Positions 3,523 to 16,808 of a DNA stretch of 24,000 nucleotides are shown here, piece after piece. Source of the stretch: Ravibacter arvi (GTDB lineage Bacteria > Bacteroidota > Bacteroidia > Cytophagales > Spirosomataceae); the NCBI RefSeq assembly GCF_039540405.1, contig NZ_BAABEY010000001.1, positions 5,493 to 29,492 on the forward strand, in the 5' to 3' direction. Numbering within the stretch: the first letter of the stretch is position 1; each line of letters starts with the position of its first letter. Made by a program: the position numbers and the translations under genes. The notes beneath the pieces were generated by a model. The model searched no databases. It had not been told where the DNA came from and saw nothing but the letters and a program-made list of their open reading frames with translations.

Positions 3523-5964
3523 ATGAAGAACCTCCTCTTTACAATTTGTCTGGCAGGAATGGTCGCCCTGAATAACGCTTCAGCTGAAACGTTTCCAGTA
3601 AGGTTGGCAGTTGTTTATATGGATGTACCACCGGGACAAAGTGAATCACAGAAAGTTATTGCGAATCTGAAGCTGAAAAGCATACACGATGGCTATCCAA
3701 AATATTCTGCGAATGCAATAGGATTTTTCCCAGAGAGAGAGCTCTATTTTGACGGGACGCGATGGGTTTTTGTCGAGAAACCTCTTTCCGGGCCTGATAT
3801 TGTCAAATGTCATAACTCTTCAGTGTCGATACGGCCTCCCACCGGGCGATGGACGAATTGCGTCTCGGTGTCTGTAGATGGCGAACAGATGTGCACGCCT
3901 CCCGAGCTTGTCGTTGAAATCAAGCGTTATACGCCTCTGGAGCAGCATGACGGTTATTATCTGACACTGGTTTCCAAATTAAATGGCACCGATGATACCA
4001 AGGCATCTTTCACATGGCTGCCCGGAGGGAAAACAGGTGAGAGCATCGAGGTACATGTTGATAAGCCAACCATTTATACTGCAACTGCCCTGCTAACCGG
4101 GTCTTGCGAAGGACTTTTAGAGATTTCTCAAACTATTCAGGTTCCGCCCCCTACCCCGGGATTGATGGCTGACGCAGGAAAAGACAATCTGGAATATTGT
4201 GGCACCAGATTACGCCTTCAAGCAAACAATCCACCTTTAGGTTGTAGCGGGTATTGGTTCGGTTCGCGATCGGAAGTGCAGGCGTTTTCGGATGACAGAG
4301 CCCCTGATTCTTTCTTTACCGGCGCTCCCGGCGAGTCGTATTCCCTGCTTTGGTATCTGACCGATGGGTATTATTCAAGTAAGGACGAAGTAATGATTTC
4401 GTTTAATAAATACAAGGCTGACGCCGGACCAGATCAGGTCGGGACTACATGCGGACCGATAGTTCTTACCGGAAATGTGAATGAGTTTGGGGTTAAAACC
4501 AAGTGGCGTATAATTAACGGTTTAGGTGGAAACCTTGAAAACGATAGCGATTTTCAAACCAAGTTTATCGGGTTCAATAACAATACATATATAATTAGGT
4601 TTACGGTTTTTGCTGATTTCTGCGTTACGGAGGATGACATAACTGTTCAATATAAAGAAAAACCATCAATTGCGTCGGCCGGTCCGGATCAACTTAAAGC
4701 GGACAAGTGTGATCTGCCCATTATTGGTCTTGCAGCCGACCAGCCACTTATCGGATTTGGCGAGTGGAGCATTGTGTCGGGTAGTGGCGGCAGTTTTACG
4801 GATCGTTCCAACCCGGCCTCGGTCTTCAAAGGAGCACCCGGTACAGCCTATGTTTTGAAATGGTCGACCACAAATCCCCCCTGTGAAGCATCCCATGATG
4901 AAGCAACTGTGAGTATTGGAAACATACCCGCTTTGTCTGTCAATGCAGATGCACAGCAAGCATTTGTTGGTGATAATATTGATTATAACCTCATCACACC
5001 GGAGTGTCGTATTATTGCGACCGTCAATGGAGTCGATCTTACGGATGGCATCAATCCTTTTTACGGGAGGGTTACGATTGACAATTCTGTTCTTAATTAT
5101 GCCGGGCAACCTTGTTTGCAACGACATTTTCAATTTACAACCGGCAATAGCGCTGCTACAGCTGACGTCATACTCTACGTGAATAAAAGCGAAATGATGG
5201 CTTTCAATGCATCCAGTACCAAAAAGCTACCTGTTGACCCCTCCGATGACAAGAGTAATTTGCGAGTTTGGCAATGGCATGAAGCGAGTGCAACCGGTCC
5301 GCCTGACAAGACAATTGACCCGGATGACAATGATATCGAATGGGATGAGATGCTGGGGGCCTGGAAGATAAAATTTCCTGTCTCAGGGTTCTCATCATTT
5401 TATCTCACGGCCGAAAACGCGGCGCCGCTACCGGTCACTTTGGTCAGTTTCTCAGCAGGGCAAAATGAAAAGGGTGTGACGCTCTTCTGGCAGACCACCG
5501 AAGAAATCAACAGCGATCATTTCGAAATCCAACGCAGCAGTGATGCCAGAAATTGGACCGGTATTGGAAAGATACAGGCAAAAGGTGAAAGTCGTGGAGT
5601 AACAACCTATTCATTCATCGACAGCAATCCGGCGCCAGGTTTCGCTCCTACCTATTACAGGCTCAAAATAACAGACCGAGATGCCACCTTCATCTATTCC
5701 CGTATTATATCAATTTCGGTGGAAAATAATCCCACAATTACAGTTTTTCCAAATCCTGCGAGTCATATGGCTACTATTCGGAGCGCGGAGCCGATTTCAG
5801 GCTATGAACTGTTTTCCGGAAATGGAATGATGATAAAAGGGATGGGAATGCGAACCGCTCGCAATACGGAAATTAATCTGAGCTTTGTTCCTGCTGGTTT
5901 ATACCTGCTCAGACTCAAGTTTGAAAACGGGGAAACCGTCTATAGAAAACTGGTGGTTGAGTGA
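3523..5964 (+). CDS. Secreted adhesin-like protein with three ~85-aa ADAG.D-type repeats and a T9SS C-terminal sorting domain
   Basis: The ORF opens at a TTG (3517). The first ATG at 3523 gives MKNLLFTICLAGMVALNNASAE, which is signal-like. Three repeats begin ADAGKDN / ADAGPDQ / ASAGPDQ and end in G(A)PG..Y.L.W. The C-terminal ~270 aa are paralogous to the previous protein (PLPVTLVSFSA...HFEIQRSSDARNWTGIGKIQAKGES...YYRLKI.DRD) and end in VFPNPA...GLYLLRL...RKLVVE. Confidence 0.85.
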   Translation: MKNLLFTICLAGMVALNNASAETFPVRLAVVYMDVPPGQSESQKVIANLKLKSIHDGYPKYSANAIGFFPERELYFDGTRWVFVEKPLSGPDIVKCHNSSVSIRPPTGRWTNCVSVSVDGEQMCTPPELVVEIKRYTPLEQHDGYYLTLVSKLNGTDDTKASFTWLPGGKTGESIEVHVDKPTIYTATALLTGSCEGLLEISQTIQVPPPTPGLMADAGKDNLEYCGTRLRLQANNPPLGCSGYWFGSRSEVQAFSDDRAPDSFFTGAPGESYSLLWYLTDGYYSSKDEVMISFNKYKADAGPDQVGTTCGPIVLTGNVNEFGVKTKWRIINGLGGNLENDSDFQTKFIGFNNNTYIIRFTVFADFCVTEDDITVQYKEKPSIASAGPDQLKADKCDLPIIGLAADQPLIGFGEWSIVSGSGGSFTDRSNPASVFKGAPGTAYVLKWSTTNPPCEASHDEATVSIGNIPALSVNADAQQAFVGDNIDYNLITPECRIIATVNGVDLTDGINPFYGRVTIDNSVLNYAGQPCLQRHFQFTTGNSAATADVILYVNKSEMMAFNASSTKKLPVDPSDDKSNLRVWQWHEASATGPPDKTIDPDDNDIEWDEMLGAWKIKFPVSGFSSFYLTAENAAPLPVTLVSFSAGQNEKGVTLFWQTTEEINSDHFEIQRSSDARNWTGIGKIQAKGESRGVTTYSFIDSNPAPGFAPTYYRLKITDRDATFIYSRIISISVENNPTITVFPNPASHMATIRSAEPISGYELFSGNGMMIKGMGMRTARNTEINLSFVPAGLYLLRLKFENGETVYRKLVVE

Positions 5965-9827: not shown

Positions 9828-10620
9828 TTACGGAAATACGCTCTAAACTGGACAGCTATTAAAAATTGTAACTGGATCAGTTGTGATTTATCAAATACTC
9901 CACACTCACATATATTTTGTTTCATACTGATCCACCAAAAGCAGCGCTTCATATTCATGCAGTGAAAAGCTTGTGGTCCGGATGATCCAACCCCCGTCGT
10001 AAGGCGCAGGGTTAAGCAAAGCAGATTGATAAATCAGGGCCTGATTTGTCTTAAACCCCTATAAAGAGGACAGATTATTCAAAAAGTTCAGCTAGTTCCA
10101 TCTCGTCATCCCGGGCAGCTGTGAGGCAAAGATAGGCCGGTGGGCTGTCGTTGTCAAGGCTGTACGAAGCGGACCCCTGGCACGTATCTTGGCGGTCCGG
10201 CATATTTGTCTGTCAGCAGAAAACCATGGGTATGGCCACGAGCATCCTCAATAAAGACCCTCGCGAGGGGCCTAGCGCCAATATTTGCTAAGAAATGAAC
10301 TGATGCAGAGGAATGGCAAAAAGGGGTTCCAGAATGCATGGCGAAATGAATGCTCCCGGGGTTACCGATGAGTTTTTCTAAATTAACAGTGGCTTATCAA
10401 AAAGCGCGTACCGGGGTATACAATAGCATCAGTTCATTATTCAGGCGCTTTCGTTTCAACGACTGCTCGATTATCTATCGGATTGGTTAATTTCAGTTGA
10501 CTGCGCCATTCTGTCAAAAAAAGATAAAATGGAATCAAATGTTCGATAGAGATTTCTTTCTCTCTACTCATGGTGTTGTAAATGAGTGAGTTATAAATAA
10601 ACTACACTTTCTTACACACA

Positions 10621-10660
10621 AAAGAGCCCTGAACAAACAGTTCGGGGCTCTTTTGTTTTA
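10621..10660. terminator. Rho-independent-type hairpin with flanking A and T tracts (bidirectional)
   Basis: AAAGAGCCCTGAAC-AAACA-GTTCGGGGCTCTTT is followed by TGTTTT. The stem is about 13 bp with one T/G position. The A-run upstream lets it work on either strand. Confidence 0.6.
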
Positions 10661-10831
10661 CTTCTGAACATACCAAGCATTCCCCAAACTTGGAGAAGGG
10701 TAGAGGTCAAACTTTCGATAAACCTACCCTTGTCCAATTTTGGACAGGCATACTTAACTCTGTTAACTGCTCACCGAATTGCTCACCAAAAATTTGGGCT
10801 TTTAGGAACAATTTGATGAACGGCGAACAAT

Positions 10832-10867
10832 AAAAAAGCCTGTAAATCAACGATTTACAGGCTTTTG
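10832..10867. terminator. Strong bidirectional rho-independent-type terminator
   Basis: A perfect 11-bp stem GCCTGTAAATC (10838-10848) / GATTTACAGGC (10853-10863) encloses a 4-nt loop AACG. It is preceded by AAAAAA and followed by TTTT. Confidence 0.7.
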
Positions 10868-10909
10868 ATGCTTTTTGATTTGATTCTCAGCGGGCTGGGC
10901 GGGAGTGTG

Positions 10910-10954
10910 ATCGAACCTATGGTGCCGTTGCTAGTGTTTCTGGATGAGTTGGAA
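10910..10954 (+). repeat. Left copy of a 45-bp direct repeat (partner at 17122-17166)
   Basis: ATCGAACCTATGGTGCCGTTGCTAGTGTTTCTGGATGAGTTGGAA versus ATCGAACCCCTGGTGCCTTTGTTGGTGTTTCTGGATGAGTTGGGA gives 39/45 identical in the same orientation. Looser gapped similarity (GATTC...GGGCTG) extends ~30 bp upstream. Confidence 0.8.
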
Positions 10955-11237
10955 TTGGGGTAATATTTGTGGTGGTGTGTCAGGCAAACTCATTTCGAAT
11001 GATATAGGCGGAATAGCTAATGTTAACCTCTGTTTTTGCTTTTTGTAGTCGTTTTGGGGAAACAAGTTTTAGCGTTTTTGACAGCCTTATACCAGGAGAG
11101 TCTGAGAGCTGGGTTTGCCTCTGCATCCCGGAATAGGATGGTCCGTCGGCCGGATCTTGACTCAGAGATGAGCACGAAGGCGAACCACAATGCTAACAGT
11201 TCATAGTTACATGTACCTGAGACTCTATGATATCACA

Positions 11238-12026
11238 CTACATCCACACCCTCTCTAGCGTCTGCCTAAATACTTCATTAAGCTTTTCCGTGTCAGGCTG
11301 ATTTTGTGGTCCTAACCCCCTGACGTACTCCGTGTAGAATTGGATCTTTTGTTCAAGAAAACTGTTCAGTACCTGAATTTTCGGTTCCTCATCCAGTTCC
11401 TCCCCTGACACTTTTCTGTTAAGCAGGTTCCGGATTTCATTCTCAACACCCGTATCTATCACCTGACTGTCGAGGAGCTTTTGAAACTCCATAGGAGCCA
11501 TGGAGTTGGTTTTCCTGATCCAATCGCAGGCAAGTATCGGACGCAATACGTAGAAGTATTTCTTCACGCGTACCTTCTCCCCCTGCAAATACGTCTTGTA
11601 ATTGCCTTCGGCCATATGCAGGTAATGATACAAACAGGATTTCGGGTTAAAATACATCTCCGTCAACTCCCGAAGCCTTTCAGCAAAGAAACCACGTTGC
11701 CAATAGACCATCGGACTTCTCAACCACTCCAGCATAGCAGGATTTGATTTTCGAAAAAGACGCAAGGCCTTCTTCAGTTCCCACCCGGCCAGATCGATAT
11801 CGTTGGGCAGTATTTCCTCCTGGCTATCCTTTTTGTCGTCGATGTCCAAATACCATTCAGGCTGATGAACATACATGTATCGCACATCCCAATCGCTGTC
11901 AACGGATGCGAAACCCCAAGCCCGGCTGCCGCTTTCGACAGCATAGAGGATTTTGATAGCATGTTGCTGTTCGAGGCGTAGAAGCTCCCTTTTTATTTCT
12001 TCTGTCATCACTTGCGGTATTGTCAT
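11238..12026 (-). CDS. RlaP-type (Pol-beta fold, PF10127-like) nucleotidyltransferase associated with RNA ligase operons
   Basis: The nucleotidyltransferase core reads ILYAVESGSRAWGFASVDSDWDVRYMYV (GS...D.D). It is followed by LKKALRLFRKSNPAMLEWLRSPMVY, typical of this family. The ORF opens at GTG 12095. ATG candidates are at 12026 and 12008, so the start is uncertain by about 20-90 nt. Confidence 0.8.
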   Translation of the reverse strand: MTIPQVMTEEIKRELLRLEQQHAIKILYAVESGSRAWGFASVDSDWDVRYMYVHQPEWYLDIDDKKDSQEEILPNDIDLAGWELKKALRLFRKSNPAMLEWLRSPMVYWQRGFFAERLRELTEMYFNPKSCLYHYLHMAEGNYKTYLQGEKVRVKKYFYVLRPILACDWIRKTNSMAPMEFQKLLDSQVIDTGVENEIRNLLNRKVSGEELDEEPKIQVLNSFLEQKIQFYTEYVRGLGPQNQPDTEKLNEVFRQTLERVWM

Positions 12027-12133
12027 ATGATCTCTGAAAACCGGCTTTTTACTTCGAAATGGTAATCTCCGGTGATCCTTAAAATGCAGAATCACTGGAG
12101 GTTAACCGGCCATTCGATAAACTACTAAAAACA

Positions 12134-12230
12134 GAAAGAGCGACAAGCCAGCTGTACATTTTCAGGATTCGAACCTGGGCTGTTTTCACAGCTTCTACCA
12201 GCGAAGTATTACATCTGTACAGCATCTTTC
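12134..12230 (-). ncRNA. Y-RNA-like module A (tRNA-like: D-like arm, GAAA-capped hairpin, T-arm; closed by terminal helices)
   Basis: Minus strand: GAAAGA-U-GCUGUACA...CUUC-GCUGGUA-GAAG, CUGU-GAAA-ACAG, CAGG-UUCGAAU-CCUG...UGUACAGC...GUCGC-UCUUUC, then a U5 run. The terminal helix is GAAAGA/UCUUUC and the inner 8-bp helix is GCUGUACA/UGUACAGC. It lies downstream of rsr in an ORF-free gap. Ends are approximate. Confidence 0.65.
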
Positions 12231-12238
12231 ATTTTGTT

Positions 12239-12371
12239 AAGAAGGGTAAAAAAGCAATGCATGGAATATACACCTTACGGCGCTCTGCTCTACCCACTGA
12301 GCTACCCCGCCAGGGCGGGAGCCAGACTCGAACTGGCGACACGAAGTAACACACATTTACGACACCTTCTT
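12239..12371 (-). ncRNA. yrlA: YrlA-type Y RNA module B: circularly permuted tRNA mimic (T-arm, loop-closed acceptor stem, D-arm)
   Basis: On the minus strand the T-arm is GCCAG-UUCGAGU-CUGGC (plus 12321-12337). The acceptor-like hairpin is UCCCGC-CCUG-GCGGGG (12305-12320). After UA comes the D-arm GCUC-AGUGGGUA-GAGC (12287-12302). The flanking 7-bp terminal helix is AAGAAGG (12365-12371) / CCUUCUU (12239-12245). There is no anticodon arm and no free CCA end. It sits next to rsr, as bacterial Y RNAs typically do. Confidence 0.7.
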
Positions 12372-12389
12372 ATTTCTTTATAATAATGG

Positions 12390-12514
12390 TAAGGAGCGAC
12401 AGGCAAAACGAGACGGGGGACCGCCGTTGAGGACTCGAACCTCCATCATATGTTGCCATACAATGCCCTCCCCCTCAAATGCTAGCGAAGTAACCCGTTT
12501 TTACGGCATCCTTA
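12390..12514 (-). ncRNA. Y-RNA-like module C (paralog of module A: D-like arm, GCAA-capped 9-bp hairpin, T-arm)
   Basis: Minus strand: UAAGGA-U-GCCGU...CUUC-GCUAGCAUUU-GAGG, then CAUUGUAUG-GCAA-CAUAUGAUG (plus 12444-12465), then GAGG-UUCGAGU-CCUC (12429-12443), then ACGGC...GUCGC-UCCUUA. It shares the 5' motif UGCYGUA...UACUUCGCU and the 3' motif UGUCGCUCYUU with module A. Ends are approximate. Confidence 0.65.
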
Positions 12515-12561
12515 TTTTATGGATAGAAATCAATCAGTCTGGCCTCAATTCCCCAACTCCT

Positions 12562-14157
12562 TCACAAGAAGCCGGGGGAACACGAAGCAATGTCGATACG
12601 CTCGATTTCATCTAGCGCTTTTCCGCCGTTTTCCAGGGCATCAAGCACGCCGAAGATCTTATCGCTCCATCCGGCCAGCAGGTAAACCTCATTCTGGATG
12701 ATCTGTACGGGTGGGCGTCCATACCCCATCAGGTCAAAAAGGTATAACCTTGCATCGGGCGCTACAGTACGTTTGTATTCCAGCCATAACGCGTAGATGT
12801 TTTTTGTACCGGTCATGCTGTTCCACAACTGACAGTCGGTAAATAGCATCACTTTGTCCATTACTACTTTCTGTTTCAACAGATCCTCAATCACGAGAAA
12901 ACCATTGGTGGAGTAGCCTACCTCTCCTTCCCGCCTATAAAACTCCTGTACATTTGCCAGGACGTTGTTCTTAGGCACCGGGATCAGCTTCCAGGTATCT
13001 CCAAACATCCCGACCCTTACGTTCCTGCACCGGCTTTGAAGCAGCATAGCCAACATCAGTCCTACATCATAGAGCAGGACCTTCGACTTTGGTGAGACAG
13101 GCTTCTGCATGGAGCCCGATATATCACACGCAAGCAATATCCTGGTATTTTCATCAAACCCGGCTATCACGGATGCACTTTGAACAACAGCTTTTTCAAG
13201 CGCTTCCAGTAGCTCGCCTACATATCCATCACTCCCGGTGAAAAAACTTTTCAGCTTTTCAGAAAGGCCGCTCTTTCCAGTAGGCAAAGACAGCAACTCG
13301 CGGTAAGCTGCCAGGTACCGAAAAGGGAATTGTTTTGCATTAGCCACTTTCTCCGGCGCAGAAAGCTGATCCGCTACCTTGCGGATGTGCGGGTGAGATA
13401 CGCCCGCCTCCAGCATATTCCGCAGGTTACGAAGCGTAGCCATGTGACCCAATTTCCCACTATCGATCAGTTCTTCCCATTTAGCTTTAAATGCAGCTTC
13501 CTTTTCAGCGTCACACTCATAGGAAACCTGGCCCAGGGCTGACAGCTCTGTCTCCCAGGTATAAGGTGTTTCAAGCCTGTCGTCTGCAATTTTGTTAAAA
13601 AGATGTTGCTGCGCTTCATCTTTCGGCTTCGGGTGCACCATGAAAAGCGCATCCCGCAACCGGATTTCGGCCGGACGATTGTATTTGGCAAACTGGTATT
13701 CGTCAAACCTGTTAAAAGCCGTAGACAATCCTTTCTGCAATTGTTTGGACAGGCCACCCAGCTTTTTAAAGCCTTTGCGCTTGTTTAAGACCTGGTAACA
13801 GGCCAACAGCTCCGTGATCTCGTCAGCACGTGCAATGACCTTTGCAGTAGCTTTGGACACCAGGTCGTCACCGGAATGTACCCGGGCCAGTTCGGTCAGC
13901 AGCACCAGCGGCGCTGACCGCATATACATTTTATAACGGGTGTAAACTGCCAGCTTTGCGACAAACAACGGATCATTCTCCGCTATCAGCTTCCTGACGC
14001 GCAGCAGGCGATCATTATCCTTTTCGTAAAACGAATCACTGACAGACCACGTCACTACGGCGGTATATAGCTCCATTGCAGGGTCAAGCCTGAAGGTCTT
14101 CTCTCCTTCATAGTTTTTAATCTGCATGCTCCCGTTGTTGACTGTATTAAACCTCAT
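12562..14157 (-). CDS. rsr: Ro60 ortholog Rsr (TROVE domain plus C-terminal vWA domain with MIDAS motif)
   Basis: The protein is about 530 aa. Its N-terminal two-thirds are helical and TROVE-like (FRLDPAMELYTAVVTW...FYEKDNDRLLRVRKLIAE...FVAKLAVYTR...MRSAPLVLL). The C-terminal vWA domain carries DISGSM (DxSxS). It lies next to rtcB and the tRNA-like RNAs. The ATG at 14157 is preferred over the TTG at 14199, which falls inside the upstream palindrome. Confidence 0.85.
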   Translation of the reverse strand: MRFNTVNNGSMQIKNYEGEKTFRLDPAMELYTAVVTWSVSDSFYEKDNDRLLRVRKLIAENDPLFVAKLAVYTRYKMYMRSAPLVLLTELARVHSGDDLVSKATAKVIARADEITELLACYQVLNKRKGFKKLGGLSKQLQKGLSTAFNRFDEYQFAKYNRPAEIRLRDALFMVHPKPKDEAQQHLFNKIADDRLETPYTWETELSALGQVSYECDAEKEAAFKAKWEELIDSGKLGHMATLRNLRNMLEAGVSHPHIRKVADQLSAPEKVANAKQFPFRYLAAYRELLSLPTGKSGLSEKLKSFFTGSDGYVGELLEALEKAVVQSASVIAGFDENTRILLACDISGSMQKPVSPKSKVLLYDVGLMLAMLLQSRCRNVRVGMFGDTWKLIPVPKNNVLANVQEFYRREGEVGYSTNGFLVIEDLLKQKVVMDKVMLFTDCQLWNSMTGTKNIYALWLEYKRTVAPDARLYLFDLMGYGRPPVQIIQNEVYLLAGWSDKIFGVLDALENGGKALDEIERIDIASCSPGFL

Positions 14158-14195
14158 GACATTCTTTGTTTTAATTGAATGTTCAAATTTCAAAC

Positions 14196-14224
14196 TCAAC
14201 TGCGCGGTCTTTCTGCGCAGTTGA
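14196..14224. promoter_or_regulatory. Palindromic operator-like site upstream of rsr (copy 1)
   Basis: TCAACTGCGC-GGTCTTTCT-GCGCAGTTGA has perfect 10-bp arms. It lies between the rtcB stop (14233) and the rsr ATG (14157). It is nearly identical to the site at 15727-15751. Confidence 0.7.
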
Positions 14225-14232
14225 AACTTTTT

Positions 14233-15687
14233 TTAATCCTCCGGCTTTTCTTTAGGATCGGCCATCCTGACAATCCGCGGCTGGAAGCTGGCGAGGACTT
14301 CTACCAAGTCGGATTGCGCGGCCATCACCGCATAGATATCCTTGTAAACCATCGGCGCTTCATCCAGCCCGGATCCGATCACCGTAATGCGGTTTTCCTT
14401 CAGGTTCCTGTCTACCACTGCCTTGTCGATGGTCTTAAGGGCCGCGCTCCGGCTCATCAACCGTCCAGCGCCATGAGAGGCCGAATGCAGCGACTCAGCA
14501 TTCCCTTTTCCACGAACTACAAACCCAGGGGTGCTCATGGAGCCGGGAATAATCCCGAGGGTATCCGCTCCGGCCGGGGTTGCCCCCTTGCGGTGTACCA
14601 TCACATCCGTACCGTCGGCCAGTTTTTCCTTCCAGGCGAAGTTGTGGTGGTTCTCGATGCGTCTCACCGGCGATACGCCGAGTCCTTTGGCGATCTTGTT
14701 GTGGATCTCATGATGGTTAGCCGAAGCGTAGTCGCCTGCCAGGTTCATCGCGATCCAGTACTCTTGTCCCTCGTCGCTATGAAGGTCCAGCCAGGCCAGG
14801 TGACGTGCTTCTTTTGGAAGCAGGGTCTTCTGCATCGCAATGGCCGAATAGGTATTGGCAATATTCCCGCCGAATCCCCTTGAACCGGAATGGGACAGTA
14901 AGGCCAGGTATCTTCCGGCGGGGATACCGTCCAGCGCATTTTCCGTAATCGTCAGCTCACCCCATTCCACGAAATGATTACCGGTTCCGGAGGTACCCAG
15001 CTGCGCATAAGCTTTATCCTTCAGCGCTTTTACGGTCTTGATTTCATTCCACTCCGGGCGGTCGAACAGCGTCGTATCCAGGTGTACGTTCGTTTTAGCC
15101 CCCATACCGAAGTGCGTATGCTCCATCAGCAGTTTTTCCAGTCTTGGCTTTTCGTGCTCCACCGATGCTGCCGGCAGATCGAAGATGCTCAGGCACATAC
15201 GACAGGCGATGTCCACCCCAACCGCATAGGGGATAATGGTATCCGGCTCTGTCGCCAGTACTCCACCTATCGGCAGACCGTAGCCCTGGTGCGCATCAGG
15301 CATCAATGCCCCTGCCACTGCAATGGGCAACTGGATAGCCGTACGCATCTGCGCCAGGGCGCCCACTTCTATGTGTTCCGGGCCGAAGACTGGGAAAGTC
15401 ATGATTTCCTCCTTTAACTGCTGCACGCTCCGGGCCTGTTTGATGAACTGACCTTTCGCGCGCAACTCAACGATCCGTTCGGCAAGATTCTTGAATTTAC
15501 CGTTCCGTTTCAGCGCATAAGGTTCCGGGTGCTCGATCAAGGCTTCAAGGTTGGCCATAATAGTGGCTTTGTCCATCACCTCGTGCTTCAGCAGGCCGTT
15601 GGCCACGCGGCTGAATGCTACCAGCAAGTCCAGGTCGCTGATTCCCAAAGCGCCTAATTCTCCATTGCTGATTTTTTCTCTTTCCAT
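14233..15687 (-). CDS. rtcB: RNA 3'-phosphate/5'-OH ligase RtcB (with an N-terminal extension of roughly 50-85 aa)
   Basis: Canonical RtcB motifs are present: MPDAHQGYGLPIGG, GVDIACRM, GTSGTGNHFVEWG, HSGSRGFG, NHHNFAWKE, HRKGATPA, IPGSMSTPGFVVRGKG and SASHGAGR (the GMP-histidine context). The ATG at 15687 (MEREKISNG...) is preferred over the TTG at 15720. Confidence 0.95.
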   Translation of the reverse strand: MEREKISNGELGALGISDLDLLVAFSRVANGLLKHEVMDKATIMANLEALIEHPEPYALKRNGKFKNLAERIVELRAKGQFIKQARSVQQLKEEIMTFPVFGPEHIEVGALAQMRTAIQLPIAVAGALMPDAHQGYGLPIGGVLATEPDTIIPYAVGVDIACRMCLSIFDLPAASVEHEKPRLEKLLMEHTHFGMGAKTNVHLDTTLFDRPEWNEIKTVKALKDKAYAQLGTSGTGNHFVEWGELTITENALDGIPAGRYLALLSHSGSRGFGGNIANTYSAIAMQKTLLPKEARHLAWLDLHSDEGQEYWIAMNLAGDYASANHHEIHNKIAKGLGVSPVRRIENHHNFAWKEKLADGTDVMVHRKGATPAGADTLGIIPGSMSTPGFVVRGKGNAESLHSASHGAGRLMSRSAALKTIDKAVVDRNLKENRITVIGSGLDEAPMVYKDIYAVMAAQSDLVEVLASFQPRIVRMADPKEKPED

Positions 15688-15726
15688 GAAAGGTATTTTT
15701 ATTTTGATGCTACAAACCAAACCTCT

Positions 15727-15751
15727 AACTGCGCAGTCTTTTTGCGCAGTT
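15727..15751. promoter_or_regulatory. Palindromic operator-like site in the rtcB / WYL-regulator divergent intergenic region (copy 2)
   Basis: AACTGCGCA-GTCTTTT-TGCGCAGTT has perfect 9-bp arms. It lies about 40 nt upstream of the rtcB ATG and 35 nt upstream of the divergent regulator ATG (15786). Confidence 0.7.
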
Positions 15752-15785
15752 GAATTTATTTCCTTACTTTTCTAAAAAAGTTGCG

Positions 15786-16808
15786 ATGCCTGTCAACCGA
15801 AACGCCCTCATACGTTACCGTACCATTGACCAATGCCTTCAGAACCGGTTCCGGAAATGGACCCTCGACGATCTCATTGAAGCCTGCTCGGCCGCCTTGT
15901 ATGAGTTTGAAGGGATCGACAAAGGTGTGAGCAGGCGGACCGTCCAGGCCGATATAGAAATGATGCGAAGCGACAAGCTGGGCTATGAAGCGCCTATTGT
16001 TGTAGTCGACCGGAAATACTACAGTTATGCGGACAAAAACTACAGCATCGCCCATATCCCGTTGAGCCACCAGGATCTGAAGGTGCTGACCGAAGTATCG
16101 GGCCTGCTGCAGCAATTCAAGGGCTTCAGCCATTCTACCGACCTGACCGAGATGGTCAGCAGGCTGGAGGATAAGATACACGCCCGTAAAACACATTCAG
16201 CCCCGGTCATCGATTTTGAAAAGAACGATCACCTTCGCGGCCTGGAGTATATTGAGGGCATCCGGAAAGCGATCGTTGCCCGGACAACGCTTTATCTTAC
16301 TTACCAATCGTTCAAAGCCCGGCAGGCCAGCTCATTCCACTTCAGTCCATACCTGTTGAAAGAGTACCGGAACCGGTGGTTTATGCTTGGCTTGTCACAC
16401 CAGCGGCATGCACCTTTACTCACACTGGCTTTGGACCGGATACAGGATTTTGGGGAAGACACCGGAGAGCCCCACCGGGAAAATACCCAAATCGATCTAT
16501 CCACCTATTATTCGGATGTGATCGGCGTGACCAAAACTCCGGGGCAGCGCGACTGTGAAGTAATATTCAGGATGGATCACAAAGACGCTCCTTACCTGAT
16601 CACCAAGCCGCTTCATCCTACGCAGAGGGTTTTGAGCGAAGACGCAGGAGGGAAAATTTTCAGTATTAAGGTTGTCTTGAACTTCGAGCTGGAAAGGGAG
16701 ATACTTGGTTTTGGTCCAAGAATACACGTTTTAGGTCCAAGGATTCTTCGTAAAAGGATCAGGGAACAGTTGAGAGAGGCTTTGGAGAAATATGAGTCTC
16801 CAGAATGA
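15786..16808 (+). CDS. HTH-WYL domain transcriptional regulator
   Basis: The ATG at 15786 gives MPVNRNALIRYRTIDQCLQNRFRKWTLDDLIEACS...GVSRRTVQADIEMMR, the N-terminal wHTH typical of Bacteroidota WYL regulators. The central WYL-type strand reads FHFSPYLLKEYRNRWFMLG. A C-terminal extension follows. The gene is divergent from rtcB. Confidence 0.8.
   Translation: MPVNRNALIRYRTIDQCLQNRFRKWTLDDLIEACSAALYEFEGIDKGVSRRTVQADIEMMRSDKLGYEAPIVVVDRKYYSYADKNYSIAHIPLSHQDLKVLTEVSGLLQQFKGFSHSTDLTEMVSRLEDKIHARKTHSAPVIDFEKNDHLRGLEYIEGIRKAIVARTTLYLTYQSFKARQASSFHFSPYLLKEYRNRWFMLGLSHQRHAPLLTLALDRIQDFGEDTGEPHRENTQIDLSTYYSDVIGVTKTPGQRDCEVIFRMDHKDAPYLITKPLHPTQRVLSEDAGGKIFSIKVVLNFELEREILGFGPRIHVLGPRILRKRIREQLREALEKYESPE

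Follow-up and report, generated by a model that had tools for sequence, protein, structure and literature searches.

What is encoded in the short gap that separates rsr, the gene for a Ro60-type protein, from the nucleotidyltransferase gene rlaP in Ravibacter arvi? The stretch that we analyzed, called the window below, is 24,000 nucleotides (nt) long and covers positions 5,493 to 29,492 of contig NZ_BAABEY010000001.1 (assembly GCF_039540405.1); all coordinates are window positions, and the RNA features described here lie on the minus strand, which is also the strand of rsr. A preliminary description of this DNA had placed three tandem, tRNA-like RNA modules in the gap. On the minus strand we found three abutting modules between 12514 and 12134, in the order C-B-A. 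Each is a conserved gene for a structured RNA that is homologous to Y RNAs; the stem is common to all three, the heads differ, and the operon in which they lie also contains rsr, rtcB and rlaP. We hold with good confidence that they are paralogous Y RNAs that dock on Rsr and differ in their effector domains, that they represent the short case of an array found in Bacteroidota, and that they are probably cut from one transcript.

Three RNA modules between rsr and rlaP

Module C (12390-12514, 125 nt) is the first of the array and consists of a frame that encloses a G/C helix, a hairpin of 9 base pairs (bp) with a GNRA cap, and a T arm. Module B (12239-12371, 133 nt) stands in the middle and combines the frame with a permuted tRNA-like domain of the YrlA type, while module A (12134-12230, 97 nt) comes last, its frame holding three elements ordered as in tRNA, namely a D-like mini-hairpin, a hairpin with a GNRA cap, and a T arm. 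The spacers measure 18 nt between C and B and 8 nt between B and A, and 47 nt separate the rsr stop codon from the first module on the same strand.

The sequence elements listed in the preliminary description were all recovered. The ends of each module are complementary: TAAGGA and TCCTTA in C (12514-12509 with 12395-12390), AAGAAGG and CCTTCTT in B (12371-12365 with 12245-12239), and GAAAGA and TCTTTC in A (12230-12225 with 12139-12134). A 23-nt 5' motif, TG[CT][CT]GTA-N9-[TA]ACTTCG, occurs at 12508-12486, 12364-12342 and 12224-12202, always on the minus strand; against these 3 matches 0.02 were expected in the window, and none out of 100 shuffles gave 3. The T-loop sequence GTTCGA[AG]T is present in all three modules, and the 3' motif TGTCGCTC[CT]TT is common to A and C. 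Y RNAs had been expected beside rsr, and the surroundings agree with this: an open reading frame (ORF) with TROVE and Ro60 vWA domains lies upstream, RlaP is encoded downstream, and module B matches the Rfam family YrlA, though below its gathering score. Here as in the related loci described below, the modules lie within ~4 kb of rsr on the same strand, as is the case for bacterial Y RNAs (Chen et al. 2014).

The gap had also been called free of ORFs. This holds for the minus strand, which has no ORF of at least 60 amino acids over 12134-12514, but on the opposite strand an ORF of 62 amino acids (12427-12615) overlaps the array. That ORF is an entry of a mechanical list, and the region is explained by the conserved RNA folds of the rsr strand. 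The modules are not tRNA genes by the usual measures, since ARAGORN found none and the Rfam tRNA model scored 15.3 bits against a cut-off of 29. No Rfam gathering score was reached anywhere in the window, and the metazoan-type family Y_RNA (RF00019) had no match in 11900-12800 at E-values up to 10.

Tandem arrays adjoin rsr in Bacteroidota

We compared the window with 80 Bacteroidota rsr loci taken from an alignment of Rsr homologues, for a total of 81 sources. The 5' motif occurred 398 times on the rsr strand of these sources and 14 times on the opposite strand. A covariance model (R1) built from the modules of class A, one of three classes described below, gave 286 matches at E<1e-3, all of them on the rsr strand; it scored module A at 87.6 bits (E 6e-22) and, through the frame, module C at 40 bits. 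In nearly all of the 80 loci the 5' motif was repeated head to tail next to rsr, amounting to ~400 modules. The number per locus ranged from 1 to 8 and was most often 6, and the array lay directly 3' of rsr in most loci and 5' of it in five. When modules were clustered on the sequence of their inserts alone, they grouped by type and not by genome, with the array order kept. The larger arrays contained extra modules of ~95 nt and ~70 nt that had no tRNA-like part. Two Cytophagales loci, L001 and L002, carried the same C-B-A array as the window, and in these the modules had hardly changed, in contrast to the spacers and to the sequence that follows module A, which had diverged. Judged by sequence comparison, the array of the window is a short case of a tandem array that adjoins rsr throughout Bacteroidota. 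The preliminary description had regarded three such copies as unusual; for this lineage they are not, since its arrays contain up to 8 modules and three is at the lower end of that range.

G/C-rich hairpin repeats (..CCCCUAAAGGGG..GCUCCCCUUU..GGGAGCCGGGG) were observed between the modules of two Mucilaginibacter arrays (L006:5815-5872, L006:6012-6060 and L007:5817-5878) and look like small repeat elements that invaded the spacers. Viral contigs were scanned as well. With the exact 5' motif there was one match per contig, approximately the number estimated for chance, and a looser motif revealed no regular arrays. Among the contigs with an exact match, a second loose match lay exactly 270 nt away in three viral contigs (L105, L114 and L161) and 66 nt away in three others (L095, L165 and L181); these pairs probably reflect a conserved phage gene or a repeat unrelated to Y RNAs.

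A common frame with covarying stems

All modules are built on the same frame, which runs from P1 (6-7 bp) through a bulged U, a G:C pair, a pyrimidine:purine (Y:R) pair, an internal loop and P2 (8 bp) to a single base, the invariant UACUUCG and the insert. The internal loop is asymmetric, with CGUA as its 5' strand and a 3' strand of ~7 nt that ends in UU. The pairing just inside P1 is thus a fixed bulge, 2 bp, an internal loop and an 8-bp helix, and differs from what is obtained by folding a single sequence. Inner pairings of the latter kind (a CCGU-AAAA-ACGG hairpin in C and GCUGUACA/UGUACAGC in A) were contradicted by the register found across the family. A pairing of CUUC with a GAGG/GGAG partner in every class was rejected for C, where the partner is not conserved.

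The register of P2 is fixed: its 3' strand ends exactly 9 nt before the 3' strand of a 6-bp P1, and at this offset a mean of 6.5 out of 8 pairs formed, compared with ~3.5 at other offsets. In a gapless alignment of 150 distinct frames, 88% of the cells paired, versus 61% after shuffling (none out of 500 shuffles was as high) and 34-54% when the partners were slid. All 8 pairs of P2 had changes on both sides, and the Y:R pair (9/49) covaried, being C:G in 82 frames and U:A in 47. When P2 was placed first, the 6 nt starting 9 nt later paired perfectly with the 5' end in 61% of 368 modules, whereas at offsets 3-8 perfect pairing was seen in at most 2%. The terminal helix suggested earlier for the window is therefore real, as its pairing was found in many loci independently of how P1 was located. 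The 5' and 3' ends pair into a long stem, as those of bacterial Y RNAs do, in which this stem carries the Ro60 site, and P1, the 2-bp step and P2 covary both in the 150 frames and within each class. Covariation in orthologous loci, by which the preliminary description had proposed to judge its helices, was found in the shared stems and in the inserts of all three classes. The stems of a module formed 12.4 out of 14 pairs with each other and 8.9 out of 14 with stems of other modules in the same locus, suggesting that a tandem precursor would be kept from misfolding.

The frame of module C can be followed position by position. The 5' strand of P1, TAAGGA (12509-12514), pairs with 12390-12395, as supported by covariation and by the search in which P2 was placed first. 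It is followed by UGCCGUA (12502-12508), a candidate Rsr-docking motif in which the U is bulged, G:C and C:G pairs form with GC at 12396-12397, and CGUA is the loop strand. The 5' strand of P2, AAAACGGG (12494-12501), pairs with CUCGUUUU at 12405-12412, where the covariation has a fixed register, and UACUUCG occupies 12486-12492. The 5' strand of the frame of module B (12342-12364) reads UGUCGUA, P2 AAUGUGUG, which pairs with CAUGCAUU at 12256-12263, then U and UACUUCG, and its Y:R pair is U:A. That of module A (12202-12224) reads UGCUGUA, P2 CAGAUGUA, which pairs with UACAGCUG at 12149-12156 with one A.G mismatch, then A and UACUUCG.

Bacterial Y RNAs carry the motif GNCGAAN0-1G, the presumed Rsr site, near their 5' end (PMC4201824). 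The corresponding G[CU][CU]GUA of the frame fits this motif at positions 1-4 and 6, and has U instead of A at position 5. From this near, not exact, match we take GYCGUA to be a putative variant of GNCGAA and a candidate Rsr-docking motif. The UAC of UACUUCG corresponds to the conserved YUAY kink of YrlA (PMC4201824; bioRxiv 10.1101/312249).

Three classes of insert

More than one tRNA-like topology is present, in agreement with the preliminary description, but the inserts have three domain architectures and not two. Class B comprises 140 modules in 68 loci. Module B displays the full permuted tRNA mimic of the YrlA type, composed of a T arm, GCCAG-UUCGAGU-CUGGC (12321-12337), a closed acceptor-like stem-loop, CCCGC-CCUG-GCGGG (12306-12319), and a D arm preceded by UA, GCUC-AGUGGGUA-GAGC (12287-12302), each located by the Rfam YrlA alignment and RNAalifold. 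YrlA (RF02553) matched the module at 40 bits (E 3.4e-7) over the T arm, the closed acceptor stem and the D arm. Only module B has this permuted domain with its tRNA-invariant bases; of the arms of the domain, A and C have just the T arm. RNAalifold recovered the T arm, a 7-bp acceptor-like stem and the D arm from 21 class B members, with strong covariation in the 7-bp stem, every pair of which was changed on both sides in at least one sequence. In the close relative L001, the T stem of module B has a compensatory change from A:U to G:C. There were 16 more sub-threshold YrlA matches in 8 loci (up to five per locus, 31-43 bits), and the gathering threshold of YrlA was reached in none of 17 Bacteroidota loci. 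The B module of L002 has a 15-nt insertion (L002:1933-1947) directly after UACUU, at the position of a variable arm. The insertion is absent from the window and from L001, and other class B members carry long variable arms at this site.

Class A comprises 30 modules, 28 of which are last in their array. Its insert begins, after UA, with a UUC/GAA mini-stem that has an invariant GG in its loop, and continues with a hairpin that varies in sequence and length and is mostly GNRA-capped, and a T arm; P2 takes the place of the acceptor stem. Module A displays a tRNA-ordered mini-domain with a frame helix for an acceptor stem, the topology described for Yrn1 of Deinococcus radiodurans. The arrangement of a Yrn1-type RNA, in which a T arm, a D-like loop and an intervening stem-loop are ordered as in tRNA, is probable for module A; the hairpin and the T arm covary, and the putative D-like UUC/GAA stem is invariant. 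The hairpin of module A, GCUGU-GAAA-ACAGC (12179-12192), has a GNRA loop and lies at the position of the anticodon arm, and the T arm is CAGG-UUCGAAU-CCUG (12163-12177), with covariation in class A. Among orthologues the hairpin changes with its pairing kept (CCGC/GCGG, ACCGU/ACGGU, CAUGUA/UACAUG, UCCC/GGGA, GCUGC/GCAGC), and all 5 modelled pairs show changes on both sides. In a MAFFT alignment of the class 97.7% of the cells pair, a value reached in none of 500 shuffles. Module A is followed by a U-rich tract, UGUUUUUAG (12134-12126). The last-position modules of class A that we inspected in Mucilaginibacter and related arrays (L003, L006, L012 and L024) also have a U-rich tract, for example AUUUAUAUUUU or AUUUUUUG.

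Class C is represented by 38 modules in 34 loci, and 29 of these modules occupy the first position of their array. The head of module C is a G/C helix that closes around a GNRA hairpin and a T arm and may take part in a pseudoknot. The 5' strand of the G/C helix (P4), GGGG (12471-12474), pairs with CCCC at 12416-12419; inside it are the 9-bp hairpin CAUUGUAUG-GCAA-CAUAUGAUG (12444-12465), which has a GNRA loop, and the T arm GAGG-UUCGAGU-CCUC (12429-12443). In the MAFFT alignment of the class (A4), 95% of the cells paired compared with 85% in shuffles, of which none out of 500 was as high. Changes on both sides were found in 3 of the 4 pairs of P4 (for example GGAGG/CCUCC) and in 5 of the 9 pairs of the hairpin, in which 97.7% of the cells were paired. 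The T arm was paired in 100% of the cells, and its two outer pairs covary (U:A 15, G:C 13, A:U 6). Together with the two bases that follow it, the CG of UACUUCG (12487-12484 in all) could form a helix with GGCG (12425-12422), 3' of the T arm. In this helix, a-a', 78% of the class C cells were paired, and C:G was replaced by G:C in 4 sequences and by U:A in 1. Helix a-a' crosses the G/C helix and is a candidate for a pseudoknot or an alternative fold.

Genomic context

The genes on the minus strand are ordered rtcB-rsr-array-rlaP and form an RNA-repair operon, presumably regulated by the product of a divergent WYL gene. The first operon gene, rtcB (14233-15720), encodes an RNA ligase (Pfam PF01139, 1.7e-82). 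It is followed by rsr (12562-14157 when counted from the conserved Met), with TROVE (Pfam, 1.4e-27) and vWA_Ro60 domains, and, 107 nt 3' of module A, by rlaP (11238-12026), which encodes an RNA-ligase-associated Pol-beta nucleotidyltransferase (PF10127, 1.5e-90). The regulator gene (15750-16808, plus strand) has WYL and WCX domains (Pfam). Among the 80 loci, rlaP lies 3' of the array in 26, and in about half a WYL/WCX gene is transcribed divergently from the operon, while the positions of rtcB and WYL vary. Homologues of the Rsr protein are named TROVE or 60 kDa SS-A/Ro. The nearest come from uncultured Cytophagales (92-93% identity), those of Dyadobacter, Mucilaginibacter and other Bacteroidota are 58-74% identical, and the closest solved structure is that of the Ro60 protein of phage phiLo (9L5Y).

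The rsr ORF as called mechanically (12562-14199) opens at a TTG inside a palindrome, 14 codons before the conserved Met. Sequence homologues, in which this residue (M15) is invariant, point to the Met at 14157 as the real start. The start of rlaP is probably the ATG at 12026 and not the GTG at 12095. The palindrome, CAACTGCGCAG-N7-CGCGCAGTTG (14196-14224, with no strand assigned), lies upstream of rsr and has the consensus (C)AACTGCGCA-N7-(C/T)GCGCAGTT; a second copy (15726-15752) is found upstream of rtcB, between it and the divergent WYL gene. At least 34 of the 80 loci have CTGCGC-N9-GCGCAG at a distance of 45-70 nt 5' of the rsr Met, and several have it 5' of rtcB. Because its sequence is conserved and does not covary, the palindrome is more likely a DNA operator for the WYL/WCX regulator than an RNA hairpin.

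Other features were noted around the array. An imperfect inverted repeat, CUCCAGUGAUUC...GGAUCACCGGAG (12045-12095, minus strand), lies between module A and the start codon of rlaP; it is the source of a spurious plus-strand match to mir-653 and is not conserved in L001 or L002. The ~1.3 kb 3' of rlaP (9960-11238) contain no ORF of at least 100 amino acids and two strong, bidirectional terminator-like hairpins (10618-10656 and 10834-10866). Further modules or RNAs in this ORF-poor region were considered and rejected, as there was just sub-threshold Rfam noise on the two hairpins.

The spacers of the arrays have a median length of 16 nt and are 84% A+U. The Bacteroidetes -7 motif TAnnTTTG was not enriched before the arrays, in arrays or spacers, or clearly before rsr, a null result that is neutral on internal promoters. 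Bona fide tRNA genes (42-70 bits) occur in or beside some arrays, with at least 15 in L053:5551-8488 and 6 in L072:3981-4465. These clusters argue for shared transcription and processing and recall the tRNA-Asp gene between Yrn2 and Yrn1 of D. radiodurans. By analogy with the Y RNAs of Mycobacterium smegmatis and D. radiodurans, which are polycistronic (PMC4201824), we infer a polycistronic precursor of the modules.

Relation to known Y RNAs

Part of what we describe is already known from other bacteria. Earlier work found at least two Y RNAs per species, at most 4 kb from rsr and on the same strand; it also showed that Y RNAs can mimic tRNA, that a T arm is present in second RNAs and that synthesis can be polycistronic (PMC4201824). 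The same study counted 355 YrlA-like sequences in 276 genomes, which means that loci with more than one YrlA copy have been seen before. YrlA (RF02553) is present in Salmonella, M. smegmatis and others (PMC4201824), and a crystal structure is available (PDB 6CU1; bioRxiv 10.1101/312249). Module B resembles YrlA in its permuted order of T arm, closed acceptor stem, UA and D arm, and the modules resemble it in the stem formed by their 5' and 3' ends, a GNCGAA-like motif near the 5' end with YUAY ~15 nt later, and an rsr neighbour on the same strand in an rtcB operon. YrlA takes a tRNA-like L shape and is modified by TruB and DusA. Unlike YrlA, the modules have a frame with a fixed geometry of its own and a conserved 3' strand (..UURC), whereas in the docking stem of the Salmonella and M. 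smegmatis RNAs just the 5' strand is recognisable (PMC4201824). Further differences are that A and C have no D arm or acceptor stem and that the docking motif is GYCGUA.

In D. radiodurans, Yrn1, Yrn2 and the small RNAs a, b and d lie upstream of rsr, so that there too several Rsr-associated RNAs are clustered beside the gene; they are co-transcribed with a tRNA gene between them, and several have T arms (PMC4201824). In topology, module A is comparable with Yrn1, in which the arms likewise follow the order of tRNA and a stem-loop takes the place of the anticodon arm. The D. radiodurans RNAs have no detectable sequence similarity to the modules, which also lack an Rfam Y_RNA match at E up to 10. 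The Bacteroidota modules, moreover, are all built on one frame and follow each other head to tail in regular arrays, separated by short spacers, and they bring together in one locus YrlA-like and Yrn1-like topologies, which were earlier described as independent lineages.

YrlB of Salmonella and M. smegmatis and Yrl1 and Yrl2 of Thermus phage phiLo (PMC12135203) are likewise second, simpler Y RNAs whose genes adjoin that of the first. Folded as long hairpins that bear a CGAA-type motif and in some cases a T arm, they resemble the minimal modules of ~70 nt in the larger arrays, but they occur singly or in pairs instead of in ordered arrays of up to 8, and no UACUUCG has been described in them. 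By motif reading alone, the frame also shows a resemblance to the Ro60 site of metazoan Y RNAs (GGUCCGA / UUGACU, a bulged helix). The latter have a terminal stem of 5' and 3' ends, one bulged pyrimidine on the 5' strand by conserved G-C pairs, an asymmetric loop and a variable effector loop, and there are two to four paralogues per species. In contrast to the modules, they are Pol III genes, dispersed or loosely clustered, and without a tRNA-like module. The Pedo-repair RNA (RF01715), a three-stem junction in the 5' untranslated regions of radC operons of Pedobacter, is unrelated, as its sequence and gene context differ, and it had no match in five Pedobacter rsr loci.

Several features appear to be undescribed in Rfam and in the literature searched, the coverage of which was incomplete. 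These are the Bacteroidota frame with its conserved 3' strand and UACUUCG, and the A and C classes. The same appears to hold for the modules without a tRNA-like part, for regular arrays of as many as 8 modules in a set order, and for the presence of YrlA-like and Yrn1-like topologies in a single locus.

Alternative explanations

A number of observations weigh against the interpretation of the modules as Y RNAs that dock on Rsr. The Rsr of the window is divergent, with 17.9 bits on the NCBIfam Rsr equivalog, whose cut-off is 900, and the putative docking motif reads GYCGUA instead of GNCGAA. The Rfam search that had been proposed as a check succeeded for module B as far as its E-value of 3.4e-7 goes, but 40 bits are below the YrlA gathering score of 69, and A and C belong to no Rfam family. 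Folding energies of the single sequences were no better than those of shuffles (z = 0.06, -0.93 and -1.66), and the same was true of the fold of the whole gap, so that support for the modules comes from the comparison across loci and not from thermodynamics. In alignment A2, P1 was picked by complementarity, a bias that is corrected by the search with P2 placed first. The model-fitted alignment of class A (A7, 41 sequences), in which 23 out of 28 pairs have changes on both sides, favours the modelled structure because it was fitted to it. UACUUCG is invariant, as is the UUC/GAA stem of class A, which makes covariation impossible there. Lastly, that the modules are transcribed, processed and bound by Rsr is a prediction made from sequence.

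Might the modules serve mainly as substrates, decoys or sentinels for tRNA-targeting ribonucleases, and not as tethers of Rsr? Elbow mimics could attract anticodon nucleases or toxins, the cleaved modules then being repaired by RtcB and RlaP, or fragments of modules could be the ligand with which the WYL regulator switches the operon on. This would suit an rtcB-rlaP repair operon with a ligand-sensing WYL regulator, a conserved palindrome that suggests repressor control and a T loop in about two thirds of the modules. It would also recall the analogous operon of Salmonella, which is induced by damaged tRNA fragments through RtcR (PMC7790460). We nevertheless think it unlikely. About one third of the modules have the full frame yet no tRNA-like insert, from which it follows that what is universally constrained is the frame and not the tRNA mimic; the array goes with rsr, lying directly 3' of it in most loci, while rtcB and rlaP vary in position; and A and C have a GNRA tetraloop where an anticodon loop would be. 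A role as decoy or sensor is, in addition, compatible with Rsr binding.

The position of the modules between two co-oriented genes raises the question of whether they act in cis on the operon mRNA, as determinants of processing or stability, as insulators or as a terminator between rsr and rlaP, instead of being stable trans-acting RNAs. Class A is nearly always last, U-rich tracts follow module A (UGUUUUUAG in the window) and the Mucilaginibacter examples inspected, and the search for a separate promoter motif detected none; the stem that closes the last module may also serve as an array terminator or 3' processing signal. As an account of the modules as a whole we find the idea highly improbable, for a locus can have anywhere from 1 to 8 of them, many loci have another downstream gene or none at all while frame and classes stay conserved, P1 is A/U-rich unlike the stems of intrinsic terminators, and the class-specific folds, including tRNA mimics homologous to the trans-acting YrlA, exceed what a terminator or stabiliser needs. 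To the notion that the modules are decayed tRNA genes, or a functionless locus-specific repeat or mobile element, we give next to no credence. T-loop and D-arm sequences are present and real tRNA gene clusters lie in or beside some arrays, but neither ARAGORN nor the Rfam tRNA model (15 bits) sees a tRNA, the modules are strongly strand- and locus-specific, every testable helix has compensatory changes, and the order of classes is conserved across Bacteroidota orders. The notion is already contradicted by the covariation data, and the scan of viral contigs, with its isolated matches in about the number estimated for chance, also speaks against it.

Implications for Ro60 function in Bacteroidota

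If the modules are Y RNAs that dock on Rsr, the array would be transcribed with rsr, and perhaps with rlaP, from an operon promoter controlled by the putative operator, and the precursor would be cut in the A/U-rich spacers into RNAs of ~95-135 nt. Stem sequences specific to each class would prevent mispairing between neighbouring modules in the precursor. Each RNA would bind the outer face of the Rsr ring via its frame, and each insert, in most cases a mimic of the tRNA elbow, would tether Rsr to, or gate it with, a different partner during RNA damage. Candidate partners include PNPase or another exonuclease, tRNA-binding enzymes, RtcB and RlaP.

A more far-reaching interpretation, which we put forward tentatively and regard as doubtful, is that of an undescribed, ordered array of Y RNA cassettes. 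A universal Rsr-docking frame would here carry up to 8 heads (full tRNA mimics, Yrn1-like mini-tRNAs, a pseudoknotted T-arm domain and small non-tRNA hairpins) with orthogonal stems as zip codes, and one Ro60 ring would be re-targeted to many partners, or would sense many tRNA-directed attacks, in connection with WYL-controlled repair by RtcB and RlaP. If true, this would unite in one family the YrlA and Yrn1 topologies, which were thought to be independent.

Current annotation misses nearly all such RNAs, as the Rfam threshold gave none in the window or in 17 related loci, and new covariance models could be seeded directly with the A class, the C class and the frame. Through the association with RtcB, RlaP and a WYL regulator, Ro60 ribonucleoproteins become connected with RNA repair; some gut commensals of this phylum have a Ro60 that has been linked with autoimmunity. 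What the effector domain of a bacterial Y RNA does, and why several Y RNAs are needed, are questions that this modular lineage addresses: the docking frame hardly varies, whereas the heads have diverged into several classes, which are themselves conserved and keep a conserved order, and so offer an experimental handle on which partner or stress response each of them serves.

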